Positions 10,783 through 27,946 of a stretch of DNA of 64,000 nucleotides are shown piece by piece. The stretch comes from an uncultured Flavobacterium sp. Its GTDB lineage: Bacteria; Bacteroidota; Bacteroidia; Flavobacteriales; Flavobacteriaceae. The DNA lies in assembly GCA_964642945.1 (NCBI GenBank), contig CAZXRX010000005.1, forward strand, positions 12,818 to 76,817, read 5' to 3'. How positions within the stretch are numbered: the stretch's first letter is position 1; every line of letters begins with the position of its first letter. The notes under the pieces are model-generated. The model saw nothing but the letters and a program-made list of their open reading frames with translations, was not told the origin of the DNA and did no database searches. The position numbers and the translations under genes were made by a program.

Positions 10783-10861
10783 GGTTGTCGGTTATCGGTT
10801 GTTGGTTGCCGGTAGCTAGTATATGAAAAATCCATCAACCGTCAACCATCAACCATCAACT
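10783..10861. repeat. 4x7-mer inverted-repeat element, family B (empty)
   Basis: GGTTGTC GGTTATC GGTTGTT GGTTGCC ... ATCAACC GTCAACC ATCAACC ATCAACT. Confidence 0.85.
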
Positions 10862-12908: not shown

Positions 12909-12974
12909 AGTTGATAGTTGATGGTTTATGATTGATGAATTTCCCCAGCAACCAACAACCAGCAACCGACAACC
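12909..12974. repeat. 4x7-mer inverted-repeat element, family B (empty)
   Basis: AGTTGAT AGTTGAT GGTTTAT GATTGAT ... AGCAACC AACAACC AGCAACC GACAACC. Confidence 0.85.
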
Positions 12975-21474: not shown

Positions 21475-21831
21475 ATGTCAAGAGACGAACAATTAAAAAA
21501 CCGCTGGAACAAGGTTGTCGAAATCCTCTCGAACCAATTTGCTGATGGCGAAACGCTCGACCTCGATGCCATCATTTACCTGATTGGCGTGCAGGAACTC
21601 GGCAAATTCAAGCAGGCTTTCAAAAAAGACGAAAAAGTCAACCTGATGCACATTGCCATCTGCCGTTTGCTGGAGCCTTACGGCTATTACGAATTCGAAT
21701 TTTTCGACAAAGACGGCTGGCCACATTACAAGGTAAAGGAAGAACTGCCACCGCTTAAGGCAGGCGAACAATCCATCCTGATGAAAGATGCCATCGTGAA
21801 TTATTTCCTCGAAAGGCAATTAATTGAGTAA
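21475..21831 (+). CDS. Conserved Bacteroidota hypothetical protein
   Basis: IYLIGVQELG...K.EK..LMHIAICRLL...GYY...DGWPHY; promoter box TATATTTG at 21429-21436. Confidence 0.75.
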   Translation: MSRDEQLKNRWNKVVEILSNQFADGETLDLDAIIYLIGVQELGKFKQAFKKDEKVNLMHIAICRLLEPYGYYEFEFFDKDGWPHYKVKEELPPLKAGEQSILMKDAIVNYFLERQLIE

Positions 21832-21901
21832 TTAGTGATTAGTCTATAGTAATTGGCCTTTGTTTAAGGGACTAATTACCAATCACACTTTACTAATCAC
21901 T
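21827..21901. repeat. 4x7-mer inverted-repeat element, family A (empty)
   Basis: AGTAATT AGTGATT AGTCTAT AGTAATT GG, 15-nt spacer, CT AATTACC AATCACA CTTTACT AATCACT. Confidence 0.85.
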
Positions 21902-24973: not shown

Positions 24974-25420
24974 TTACAGCTTATAGCTCTGTTGAAGTCT
25001 AAAATTATATATTAAAAATCCGCAGCTTATAATTACAGGAGGTGGAAAGGCGATCAAAAATAAAGTTTTAGTTATATTACATAAGGAATAATAATAGATG
25101 TACAGACATCCGATAATCCATACCAGCGACAGTATCACTAAAAATACTCCAATCCAGTTTAACCCTCTCATCAGTCTATCAATAGCAGCATCATTTCCCT
25201 TTTTAAATTCGTCCCATAAATTTTCATCTATTCCTGAAACAATCATACCATAGGCCATATAAAAAACCGCAAATAAAAAGAGGCATAACTGCATTGCTAT
25301 TGAAAACAGCTTTAGGTTTATTGTTAGCGTAAACCATCCTGAAAAGCACATCAAAGTTATGCCCGTAAATGTCAGAATCATTACCAACCCATTTTCCTTA
25401 TCTCTGTTAACGATTTTCAC
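24974..25420 (-). CDS. AT-rich hypothetical membrane protein (about 4 TM)
   Basis: GTG start overlaps the nadD TGA; hydrophobic helices; no recognised family. Confidence 0.55.
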   Translation of the reverse strand: MKIVNRDKENGLVMILTFTGITLMCFSGWFTLTINLKLFSIAMQLCLFLFAVFYMAYGMIVSGIDENLWDEFKKGNDAAIDRLMRGLNWIGVFLVILSLVWIIGCLYIYYYSLCNITKTLFLIAFPPPVIISCGFLIYNFRLQQSYKL

Positions 25421-25998
25421 TTCTTGTAAAAATTGTTATAATCAATTTCTTCCCAAACCTTTTCGGGCAACAGCGGCCTTACATTCTTCTTGTTTTTGAG
25501 GCTTTCGCGGATGAAGGTCGATGAAATTTCAACTATGGGTGCGTCAATTTTATGCACGCGGGCTTGTTTTTCAAAAGCAGGATTTGGCGTTTCAGATGAA
25601 ATGCGCGGATACACGTAAATGTCATGGTGCTCCAGCAGGTACTCATAATTTTTCCACTTGTGCAGCGAATGTAAGTTGTCTTCGCCCATAATCAATGAAA
25701 ACTCATGCTGCGGGAATTTGTCTTTCAAATGGGCCAATGTATTGACCGTATAATTGGGTTGCGGCAACTTGAATTCGATGTCGGAAGGTTTGATTTTCGG
25801 ATAATCTTCGGTGGCCAACTGCACCATGTGGTAGCGTTGGCGGTCATCGAGCAGGGTGTTTTTCTGTTTCAGCGGATTGTGCGGCGTAACCACCATCCAG
25901 ATTTGTTCCAAATCGGAATACTCTGCCATGTGGTTGGCAATAATCAGGTGCCCTACGTGTATGGGGTTGAAGGTTCCGAAATAGAGTCCGATTTTCAT
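25417..25998 (-). CDS. nadD: Nicotinate-nucleotide adenylyltransferase
   Basis: GTFNPIHVGH, IMGEDN and ISSTFIR motifs. Confidence 0.96.
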   Translation of the reverse strand: MKIGLYFGTFNPIHVGHLIIANHMAEYSDLEQIWMVVTPHNPLKQKNTLLDDRQRYHMVQLATEDYPKIKPSDIEFKLPQPNYTVNTLAHLKDKFPQHEFSLIMGEDNLHSLHKWKNYEYLLEHHDIYVYPRISSETPNPAFEKQARVHKIDAPIVEISSTFIRESLKNKKNVRPLLPEKVWEEIDYNNFYKK

Positions 25999-26004
25999 TT
26001 TATA

Positions 26005-26034
26005 AGTGATTAGTGAAGAGTAAAGAGTAATTAG
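26005..26034. repeat. 4x7-mer arm (family A) at the 3' end of the four-helix-bundle gene
   Basis: AGTGATT AGTGAAG AGTAAAG AGTAATT AG; contains the gene's stop codon. Confidence 0.9.
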
Positions 26035-26396
26035 TCTTTGAGTTTTCTTGAAAAAGAATTGATCATTTTGGATTCTTCTTCAATTTCATTCAAAATTACA
26101 GTTAAGTCTTTTTCCCCAATAATAAATCCTAAATCGTTGGCAATTATAAGTTGTGTCTCAAGTTCGTAAAGTGATCCCCTTGCAATATCCAAAAAGTGAC
26201 CAAAGGATTTATCAGTGTTTCTGCCGAATCCTTCTGCAATGTTTGAAGGTATGGAAACAGCCGCTCTTTTTAATTGGCTACTCAAAGCATATAGTTCTTC
26301 TTTAGGAAAAGAGTCTGTTATAGTATAGACCAAACGAACAATTTTAATGCCTTTTTGCCAAATCAGTAAATCCTTATATGATTTTATTTCTCCCAT
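26031..26396 (-). CDS. Four-helix-bundle protein (23S rRNA IVS-protein / bAvd-like family)
   Basis: YKDL.IWQK, FPKEELYALSSQLKRAAVSIPSNIAEG and FL.IARGSL.ELETQL signature. Confidence 0.93.
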   Translation of the reverse strand: MGEIKSYKDLLIWQKGIKIVRLVYTITDSFPKEELYALSSQLKRAAVSIPSNIAEGFGRNTDKSFGHFLDIARGSLYELETQLIIANDLGFIIGEKDLTVILNEIEEESKMINSFSRKLKD

Positions 26397-26400
26397 CCTG

Positions 26401-26430
26401 CTAATTACTCCTCACTAATCACTCTTTACT
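26401..26430. repeat. 4x7-mer arm (family A, inverted) at the 5' end of the four-helix-bundle gene
   Basis: CT AATTACT CCTCACT AATCACT CTTTACT; contains the gmk stop codon. Confidence 0.9.
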
Positions 26431-26998
26431 GATTCACAAATTCCTTGACCAATTCATACGCTTCCTGCTTCGCGACATCGAGATCATAATTCTTGATGAC
26501 GGTATCAAATTGCGGCGCCGTGGCGAGTTCGACATGGGCTTTGGCGATGCGCATGTTGATTTTTTCGTCGGTTTCGGTGGAGCGTTCCTTTAAGCGTCGT
26601 TTGAGTTCGTCCACACTGGGCGGTTTCACGAAAACGGCCAGCGTTTCCTGCGGGAATTTGTGCTTGATTCTTAATCCGCCGGCCACATCGATATCAAAAA
26701 TAACGTTTTTGCCTTTGGCCCAAATGCGTTCGACTTCACTTTTCAGGGTGCCGTAAAAATTATCGCGGTACACTTCTTCCCATTCGATAAAATCTTCGGC
26801 CTTGATGTGTTTCTTGAAATCGGCGATGGATATAAAATAGTAGTCTTTTCCGTCCACTTCTTCGCCGCGCGGTTCCCGTGTGGCGGCCGAAATGGAAAAC
26901 TCCAAATTTAAATCGGGCTGTGCCAGCAAATGCCTTACGATAGTGGTTTTTCCGGAGCCGGAAGGGGCAGAAAATACGAGGAGTTTTCCTTTGTTCAT
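26426..26998 (-). CDS. gmk: Guanylate kinase
   Basis: APSGSGKTT, SISAATR.PR..E.DG.DYYF and YGT motifs. Confidence 0.97.
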   Translation of the reverse strand: MNKGKLLVFSAPSGSGKTTIVRHLLAQPDLNLEFSISAATREPRGEEVDGKDYYFISIADFKKHIKAEDFIEWEEVYRDNFYGTLKSEVERIWAKGKNVIFDIDVAGGLRIKHKFPQETLAVFVKPPSVDELKRRLKERSTETDEKINMRIAKAHVELATAPQFDTVIKNYDLDVAKQEAYELVKEFVNQ

Positions 26999-27005
26999 TT
27001 TGGTT

Positions 27006-27086
27006 AGTGATTAGTGAATAGTAAAGAGTAATTAGCCAGAAGCCGTTTACAACCGACTAATTACTAATCACCAATTACCAGTTACT
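27006..27086. repeat. 4x7-mer inverted-repeat element, family A (empty)
   Basis: AGTGATT AGTGAAT AGTAAAG AGTAATT AG, 21-nt spacer, CT AATTACT AATCACC AATTACC AGTTACT; left arm 29/30 identical to 26005-26034. Confidence 0.9.
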
Positions 27087-27946
27087 TATAAAACATTAAG
27101 TACTTGTTCTTTAATTTTTTCCAACTCATCCTTCATCATCACCACCAGTTTCTGCATTTCGGTGTGGTTGGATTTTGAACCCATTGTATTGATTTCGCGG
27201 CCCATTTCCTGGGTGATGAAACCGAGTTTACGGCCATTGGCCTCGGTTCCGGCAAGGGTTTCTATAAAATAGTTGAGGTGGTTTTCGAGCCGTACCTTTT
27301 CTTCGGTGATGTCATATTTTTCGAGGTAAAAAATCAGTTCGTGCTCAAAACGGTTTTCGTCTACGCTTACCTGAAGATCATCCAGGGCGGTGCGTAAACG
27401 CGTTTTTACGGTTTCGATGCGTTCGGCATCATACGACACGGCATTGTTCATGAGCGTCATGATGTTGGCAATGCGGTGCAGGAATTCTTTTTCAAGCGCC
27501 ACGCCTTCATCTTTCCGGAACTGGCAGATGTTTTCTATGGCTTGGTCAATCACCGTTTGTATCTGTTTCCATTCGTTTTCGTCAATCTCGTCGCGTTCGG
27601 TCTTGAGCGCATCGGGCATCCTGACGGCCATCTTCATGAGTTCGGTTTCGTCGGCATTCGGGATAACTGCTTTCATCTGGTTGATGTAGCCTTTGACAAT
27701 CGGCACGTTGATTTTGGAGGAAGTTTCTTCGCCCGTGATTTCCACATAGAGCGAAAAATCAATTTTTCCGCGTTCGAGGCGTTGTGACAACTGGTTGCGC
27801 AGGGTCAGTTCCATTTCCCTGAAAACCGAAGGCATGCGGGTGTTCAGATCCAATCCTTTGCTGTTTAATGATTTTAATTCTACGGTAATTTTTTTGGTCG
27901 GCAATTGGAGGGAAGCCTTTCCAAAACCAGTCATTGATTGTATCAT
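27086..27946 (-). CDS. yicC: YicC/YloC family endoribonuclease
   Basis: MIQSMTGFG, DITEE..RL..H and GRKL.F..QE..RE.NT.GSK; upstream of gmk. Confidence 0.92.
   Translation of the reverse strand: MIQSMTGFGKASLQLPTKKITVELKSLNSKGLDLNTRMPSVFREMELTLRNQLSQRLERGKIDFSLYVEITGEETSSKINVPIVKGYINQMKAVIPNADETELMKMAVRMPDALKTERDEIDENEWKQIQTVIDQAIENICQFRKDEGVALEKEFLHRIANIMTLMNNAVSYDAERIETVKTRLRTALDDLQVSVDENRFEHELIFYLEKYDITEEKVRLENHLNYFIETLAGTEANGRKLGFITQEMGREINTMGSKSNHTEMQKLVVMMKDELEKIKEQVLNVL

Follow-up and report, generated by a model that had tools for sequence, protein, structure and literature searches.

Known systems and the present locus

One of the closest described systems is the S23p intervening sequence (IVS) in the 23S rRNA of Coxiella burnetii. 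In the available part of that study (PMC4990558), the IVS carries a PF05635 ORF and tandem heptamers (GACAGAT) in its 5' arm; the copy number of the heptamers varies between strains, and the 28-bp stem was cut by RNase III in vitro. The authors of the Coxiella study left the origin of IVSs open and also cited an ORF-bearing IVS for Leptospira.

MITEs and REP/RAYT elements are short intergenic inverted-repeat elements, which occur in gene-bearing and gene-less forms. They are named in the introduction of a paper whose main text describes intergenic arrays of the heptamer GGGAATC in Xanthomonas and Nostoc, with inverted pairs in Xanthomonas (PMC4692102). Intergenic arrays of TAACTGA are described for Beggiatoaceae and five Bacteroidetes in the main text of another paper, in which MacGregor proposed a translational role for them (PMC4679880). 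The main texts of these two papers do not link the arrays to four-helix-bundle genes (the term "four helix" has no match), nor do they report swapping of repeat families at one junction.

As for the proteins, Xanthomonas XCC0516 (PDB 2GSC) and bAvd, the accessory protein of a diversity-generating retroelement (DGR), are both described as pentamers. In the available part of PMC6182149, bAvd is a highly positively charged barrel that works together with a reverse transcriptase. Genes of PF05635 are found within cas loci too, according to the available part of PMC3936711. The protein family, the IVS layout and the intergenic heptamer arrays are each already known from separate publications. No paper tying four-helix-bundle genes to inverted heptamer arms in operons was found in a literature search that covered few subscription journals and no supplements. 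Same-site exchange, repeat-family swapping and the absence of an RNA-strand bias were tested here.

The cassette described below was found in an uncultured Flavobacterium sp., in a window of 64,000 nt (the whole stretch of DNA that was analysed). It is a member of PF05635 and IVS-like in its layout, but it does not qualify as an rRNA IVS, as a DGR Avd or as any known insertion sequence. As in the rRNA IVS of the available text, an ORF of this family lies in the loop between complementary arms. However, the cassette lies between two protein genes of an operon and not in an rRNA gene, has gene-less versions and undergoes same-site swapping. Compared with the Coxiella IVS as described in the available text, heptamer arrays are present in both arms, and the ORF is under purifying selection rather than decaying. 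Its arrays resemble those described in the main texts on Xanthomonas, Nostoc, Beggiatoaceae and Bacteroidetes in lying between co-oriented genes, G-rich after stops and C-rich before starts; the spread of those arrays is left unexplained there.

The cassette has terminal inverted repeats like an insertion sequence or a MITE, but the protein it carries is no transposase and no target-site duplication was seen. It shares gene-bearing and gene-less forms with MITEs and REP/RAYT elements, although its ends are tandem 7-mer arrays and, unlike the case of REP/RAYT, no Y1 (PF01797) transposase was matched in its own genome (91% complete). Its relation to DGR Avd is that of a remote homolog, below both cut-offs; the neighbouring genes are gmk and nadD, with no adjacent reverse transcriptase.

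Organization of the cassette

The features of the window are listed in Table 1. The TAA of gmk lies inside the 5' arm, which ends 4 nt before the ATG of the ORF. In the same manner, the ORF's own TAA lies inside the 3' arm, which ends 6 nt before the ATG of nadD. The preliminary description had given a 121-aa ORF between inverted 30-nt arms of four AGTRAnn units each, and every sequence detail of it was exact. The ORF is also AT-richer than its neighbours, as stated there: its GC content is 0.325, compared with 0.475 in gmk and 0.443 in nadD, and its GC3 is 0.26, compared with 0.57-0.58 in these two genes.

Table 1. Cassette, neighbouring genes and gene-less hairpins in the window
Feature	Position	Strand	Description
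5' arm	26401..26430	-	four AGTRAnn heptamers + AG; AGTAAAG AGTGATT AGTGAGG AGTAATT AG (26430-26401)
3' arm	26005..26034	-	inverted array (nnTYACT)x4; CTAATTACT CTTTACT CTTCACT AATCACT (26034-26005)
Four-helix-bundle gene	26031..26396	-	121 aa, TIGR02436 / PF05635, AT-rich; ORF list and profile searches
gmk	26426..26998	-	guanylate kinase, upstream host gene; ORF list and profile search
nadD	25417..25998	-	nicotinate-nucleotide adenylyltransferase, downstream host gene; ORF list and profile search
Gene-less AGTRAnn hairpin, yicC–gmk	27006..27086	-	from the yicC stop to 7 nt before the gmk ATG
Second gene-less AGTRAnn hairpin	21827..21901	+	between a 139-aa ORF and a 339-aa ORF, presumably pheS-like
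Gene-less hairpin, other heptamer family	10783..10861	-	GGTTGTC / AGTTGAT; the same family brackets the paralog on contig C3
Gene-less GGTTGTC-family hairpin	12909..12974	+	between a 334-aa ORF and a 288-aa ORF

The two arms are complementary at 76% over 33 nt, and two sub-registers reach 95% (19 nt) and 94% (17 nt). The inverted-repeat score of the cassette flanks was 39, against a shuffled 99th percentile of 34. The folding z value of the cassette region was -2.74, and none of 100 shuffles equalled it. An Rfam search gave no match over the gmk–nadD locus and none across 10 loci.

Encoded protein

The ORF scored 128 bits against TIGR02436 (curated cut-off 24) and 130 bits against PF05635 (curated cut-off 33.8). 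Its nearest solved relative is XCC0516 (E 4e-23), the PDB entry of which contains five chains, and a single-sequence structure model of low confidence (mean pLDDT 48) showed four long helices. The product would likely form a five-subunit ring. The kinship to bAvd proposed in the preliminary description proved genuine yet distant, since the scores against the DGR Avd profiles (20.6 bits for NF033474, cut-off 80; 27.8 bits for PF22296, cut-off 40) were under both curated cut-offs. In profile searches the ORF matched helix-bundle families only, and the cassette encodes no transposase or other recognisable catalytic protein.

Exchange at the gmk–nadD junction

Filled, gene-less and absent states of the junction were all present among Flavobacterium genomes. 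The gmk–nadD junction could be resolved in 34 of 36 same-genus genomes, and the cassette was present in 10 of these 34. Two others had a gene-less AGT-type hairpin, and the remainder had unrelated repeats, another gene or a short spacer. In other families, where the two genes mostly abut, none of the nine resolvable loci (12 examined) had the cassette. A strict DNA search matched 43 of 301 genomes of the genus, 41 of them over most of the query, which means that at least 41 of the 301 carry it. Named isolates with the cassette, among loci L052-L075, include F. reichenbachii DSM 21791 and F. aquicola DSM 100880.

Two types of arm, AGTRA and AGTCC, occur at this junction. The arm type is tied to the lineage of the ORF and not to the flanking genes: for 55 cassettes (a set without L063), the arm type changed once on the ORF tree, whereas the gmk+nadD tree required 12 changes (mean of 17.8 and minimum of 12 in shuffles). 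Co-inheritance alone suffices to explain this match of arm and ORF. Loci L153 and L163 illustrate the exchange; their flanks are 91.5% identical, whereas their ORFs are 72.6% identical and their arms are of different type. Furthermore, a contig from run X19 has 18 differences from L163 in 807 letters towards gmk and 38 in 741 letters towards nadD, but 114 other letters stand in it at the position of the 453-nt cassette.

The ORF is conserved. The median dN/dS was 0.083 (352 pairs), indicating purifying selection, and in-frame stops were found in 4 of the 55 cassette ORFs. Within an arm type, flank identity correlated with ORF identity (Spearman 0.37), and the ORF tree partly mirrors the hosts. 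This is as expected if old alleles pass among relatives through ordinary homologous recombination. No excess of flank identity beside same-family alleles was detected at atpA–atpG, the hbd junction or the nadD 5' end, a comparison of low power.

Second locus and other junctions

In L066/L131, the cassette is located at an unrelated junction, after a GATase gene. The AGTRA arms are retained there, the proteins are 75-76% identical, and in a quick protein tree the two ORFs nest inside the gmk–nadD clade (SH-aLRT 90). Among the 30 best-scoring loci of the GATase-gene junction, one was filled, two had gene-less AGTRA hairpins, nine had other inserts (mostly other hairpins), two had another gene and 16 were plain spacers of at most 33 nt. 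Comparison by eye of filled and plain alleles at this junction gave no evident target-site duplication; the insertions are old.

Taken together, the site survey, the trees and the second locus argue for a unit that is swapped within a single site, also arrives at others and probably degenerates into hairpins. Gene and arms are swapped, missing or relocated as a whole among Flavobacterium genomes, and from these sequence comparisons the unit is likely to be a mobile cassette. The mobile module without a transposase that the preliminary description had proposed is supported by a patchy distribution at gmk–nadD, exchange independent of the flanks, the second locus, armed paralogs and a conserved ORF. 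That account had named a fixed locus, armless relatives and armless paralogs as findings that would speak against it, and at the level of sequence none of these was found.

It should be mentioned that sister proteins of 55-62% identity, with related AGT-core arms, occur at a different junction in L082, L084, L087 and L088. This junction, which we take to be sdhA–sdhB, suggests an older move.

Arms across the protein family

Arms are not confined to the gmk–nadD site. The shuffled-flank 99th percentile was exceeded in 79 of 109 relatives with full flanks, which belong to several phyla and of which 40 are at the gmk–nadD site; most relatives have inverted rather than direct arms. Of 32 paralogs scored in five Flavobacterium genomes that are complete or nearly so, 23 passed, compared with 14 of 285 control ORFs; this census missed two loci, included one broken gene twice and contained three other genes that were truncated. 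All ten scored paralogs of genome G273 had arms, each of a different unit.

Similarity of the arms showed no overall correlation with similarity of the proteins among 45 distinct loci (Mantel p=0.30) and followed it only between closely related proteins; the arm cosine was 0.34 for the seven pairs above 70% protein identity, compared with 0.05-0.06 for pairs below 50%. In three of four families, the highest counts of array matches came from genomes with the corresponding cassette. The AAAGTC matches numbered 9, 6 and 9 with a matching cassette and 0 and 2 without one, and the AGTCC matches 5 and 15 with and 0, 0 and 0 without. For AGTRA, 72 matches were found with a matching cassette and 24 with a related one, compared with 12, 3 and 0 without; the genome with 12 is G273. 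The exception is GGTTGTC, with 98 matches in G100 and 24 in G273, neither of which has a matching cassette among its PF05635 genes. For this family at least, hairpins do not depend on the genome holding a matching cassette. Arrays also grow, to at least 11 units in L131 and to long GACAACC runs in G100.

Gene-less hairpins and paralogs in the same genome

AGTRAnn arms with no gene between them form five hairpins in the genome: at yicC–gmk, before the putative pheS-like gene, at atpA–atpG and at two further junctions. The hairpin at yicC–gmk, which was absent from the preliminary description, has a folding z value of -5.35. A strict tandem AGTRA pattern gave 12 matches in the 2.84-Mb genome, 11 of which are within the cassette or these five hairpins. 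The strict pattern was adopted because a loose three-unit scan was no better than chance (23 matches, compared with 17 and 14 after shuffling).

The genome has three PF05635 genes, and both of the others also lie between inverted tandem arrays, made of GGTTGTC heptamers for one and of a 16-nt unit for the other. The paralog with GGTTGTC arms (L222, G000:C3:93741-94206) lies between the apparent halves of one split gene, presumably methionine synthase. The other (L223, G000:C107:78-590) lies within inverted arrays of the 16-nt unit instead of a heptamer, and gene-less copies of these arrays are present on C4, C36, C95 and C118.

Genome-wide, 33 GGTTGTC and 12 AGTGTTC arrays were found, compared with none in two shuffles; a cassette matching the 12 AGTGTTC arrays was absent from the genome's own assembly. 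With respect to the genes, 27 of 57 arrays of this genome have the C-rich form before an ATG and 16 have the G-rich form after a stop; the opposite arrangements occur 3 and 6 times. The sole PF00078 match in the genome is a 509-aa reverse transcriptase on contig C52 (L221, G000:C52:14703-15356; PF00078 only). It has no visible link to the cassettes, and no reverse transcriptase lies beside the ORF.

Repeat-family swapping at atpA–atpG

The atpA–atpG junction (own copy G000:C7:53508-53568; loci L224-L253) allowed the hairpins themselves to be compared. Of the 30 loci, which are the best-scoring matches at each junction and not a random draw, 29 have an inverted heptamer hairpin that begins near the stop and ends near the ATG. 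About 12 repeat families, labelled by eye, are represented. Only 3 of the 30 loci have the same family as the nearest neighbour by flanking DNA, and the family differs even where flanks are nearly identical, as between L235 and L251 (96%) and between L227 and L232 (97%). The hbd junction showed the same swapping behaviour, with families again labelled by eye.

No cassette-sized insert was found at atpA–atpG in 81 of the 84 other matched genomes, the remaining three being interrupted by contig ends. The idea that every gene-less hairpin is a cassette decayed at its own site has no support at this junction (0 cassette-sized inserts in these 81 of 84).

Strand preference of the arms

The preliminary description had regarded the arms as an IVS-like stem selected for processing of the mRNA. 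According to this explanation, the arms are kept for pairing, RNase III cuts the stem, the ORF is released and the gmk–nadD transcript is split. The Coxiella 23S IVS, as described in the available part of PMC4990558, offers a precedent in its family ORF, 5'-arm heptamers and RNase III-cut 28-bp stem. In addition, the arms of most relatives are inverted rather than direct. The gmk–nadD copy of the window itself can form a 19-bp uninterrupted helix on the mRNA strand, which is also present in the minimum-energy fold, and its duplex is stronger on that strand (-29.5 kcal/mol, compared with -25.0 kcal/mol antisense).

A stem kept as RNA would be expected to tolerate G·U pairs over A·C mismatches on the mRNA strand, a criterion of our own. 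After strand-neutral alignment, in which 175 of 210 elements were kept above the score cut-off, the G·U to A·C ratios in six sets, which overlap and contain kin that are not independent, were 45:39, 30:37, 86:89, 115:113, 55:57 and 20:28, a total of 351:363. The arms thus differ from an RNA helix in showing no tolerance of G·U over A·C. The controls, which were tRNA stems (31:2) and terminator-like hairpins (10:2), showed a clear excess. Register-free duplex energies gave the same picture: the sense duplex was stronger in 74 and the antisense in 69 of 147 elements, whereas 27 tRNA acceptor stems gave 14:1 for sense. The atpA–atpG set leans to the sense duplex (17:10, p=0.08). The longest helices at gmk–nadD measured 9-29 bp on the sense and 8-23 bp on the antisense strand.

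In 43 AGTRA elements, 8.93 of 12 variable positions were matched between arms, compared with 8.87 when the units were permuted (p=0.41); the match within an element was slightly better than across elements (8.93 and 8.36, p=0.012). The AGTRA core is kept in both arms, whereas the variable positions are out of register. Given the absence of a wobble bias and this lack of register, the arms resemble a pair of inverted arrays that share a motif and are conserved independently of each other, in the manner expected of binding sites.

Finally, RNA-library contigs from four runs of three studies crossed the L163 cassette whole, with no joint skipping it; such contigs are blind to unligated cleavage and may include DNA, so that they speak, weakly, only against abundant re-ligation. 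With neither a G·U excess nor a sense-strand energy advantage across the sets, and with the variable positions out of register, selection of the stem for mRNA processing is not borne out, and this explanation is considered unlikely. The arms may nevertheless be cut incidentally by RNase III in mRNA, because the 19-bp helix can form in the window's own copy.

Proposed mode of spread

The reading that we prefer, to which we would give about an even chance, is that the cassette has no transposase and that its protein recognises the arrays of its own unit as strand-symmetric sites, likely in DNA, and favours copying into stop–start junctions by host enzymes. Such symmetric binding of its own heptamer arrays is predicted for the helix-bundle protein, a putative ring, and the bound protein would likely assist the insertion of copies at these junctions. 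The cassette encodes no recognisable catalytic protein, and we therefore assume that cutting and joining are done by host recombination or repair. The 5' arm provides the upstream stop or starts at it, and only a few bases separate the end of the 3' arm from the following ATG, so that the operon likely continues to function after an insertion. Should the ORF be lost from between the arms, gene-less hairpins would likely remain, and at favoured junctions such hairpins appear to displace each other repeatedly.

Several observations stand against this cassette reading. No Y1 transposase was found, the reverse transcriptase is on another contig, and no target-site duplication is evident. The ORF tree partly mirrors the hosts, and GGTTGTC, AGTRA (in G273) and AGTGTTC arrays occur with no matching cassette. 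Moreover, protein and arm similarity show no overall correlation, and both the atpA–atpG set and the window's own copy lean to the mRNA strand.

TRAP binds spaced repeats in RNA, and the ring protein might likewise bind the heptamers in mRNA and regulate downstream translation, the gene-less hairpins being operators whose alleles are kept by selection. The placement of the C-rich form before ATGs and of the G-rich form after stops (27 and 16 of 57, the reverse 3 and 6) fits such a regulator, as does the retention of an atpA–atpG hairpin in 29 of 30 loci. Units made of a constant core and a 2-nt variable tail would also suit the binding of one repeat by each subunit, and a translational role is what MacGregor proposed for the TAACTGA arrays in the main text of PMC4679880. 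However, the two arms present AGTRA on different strands, one on that of the mRNA and the other on its complement, and a reader of single-stranded RNA would therefore recognise just one of them. In 27 of 30 atpA–atpG loci the repeat family differs from that of the nearest neighbour, which is hard to reconcile with a stable regulon, and gmk–nadD is empty in many genomes. We regard regulation of this kind as quite improbable.

Very doubtful, too, is the explanation that slippage-grown repeats are tolerated at junctions together with a passenger gene, alleles being exchanged only by ordinary homologous recombination among related strains: free expansion of the arrays, the lack of an enzyme or target duplication, an ORF tree that partly follows the hosts and the acceptance of unrelated hairpins and genes by the junctions agree with it, but it leaves unexplained the same motif at both ends in inverted orientation, the arms of 10 out of 10 scored G273 paralogs with a different unit each, the conserved ORF and the arms kept at a new locus, and same-family alleles showed no excess flank identity (low power).

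Extending the reading of a transposase-less cassette, an Avd-like ring protein that reads its own arrays might drive cassettes and hairpins to stop–start junctions, with rival families displacing each other there. That would amount to a new class of mobile element, a proposal that we put forward tentatively and regard as somewhat unlikely. If it were true, the long-noted excess of bacterial heptamer repeats would be explained, and ORF-bearing rRNA IVSs would be copies that landed in rRNA. The cassette brings together three subjects that the cited papers treat apart: the function of PF05635, a conserved family named after rRNA IVSs; the intergenic heptamer arrays; and the origin of ORF-bearing IVSs. 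That one repeat family can wholly replace another at a given operon junction in closely related species points to turnover at the junctions of core genes, and if the protein drives this turnover, it would represent a mode of DNA mobility with no known transposase. The function of the protein is directly testable, because each paralog comes with a candidate ligand; G273 alone provides ten protein–array pairs.

Other features around the junction

In other species, at gmk–nadD in L011, L012, L025, L027-L029 and L033, and also in L267, a different repeat type with CACAGAG/CTCTGTG and CGCAAAG/CTTTGCG units was observed. Such repeats can adjoin GxxExxY-family genes. In L163, a short stretch just 3' of nadD (L163:2778-2812) is matched by many unrelated contigs, which suggests a dispersed repeat family at this position. 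Directly 3' of nadD in the window lies an AT-rich, membrane-protein-like ORF of 148 aa (24974-25420) with no NCBIfam match. The gene upstream of both operon hairpins (27086-27946) encodes a YicC/YloC family endoribonuclease. In this yicC-gmk-nadD region, four arms of one family lie within 1.1 kb and could pair in alternative ways.
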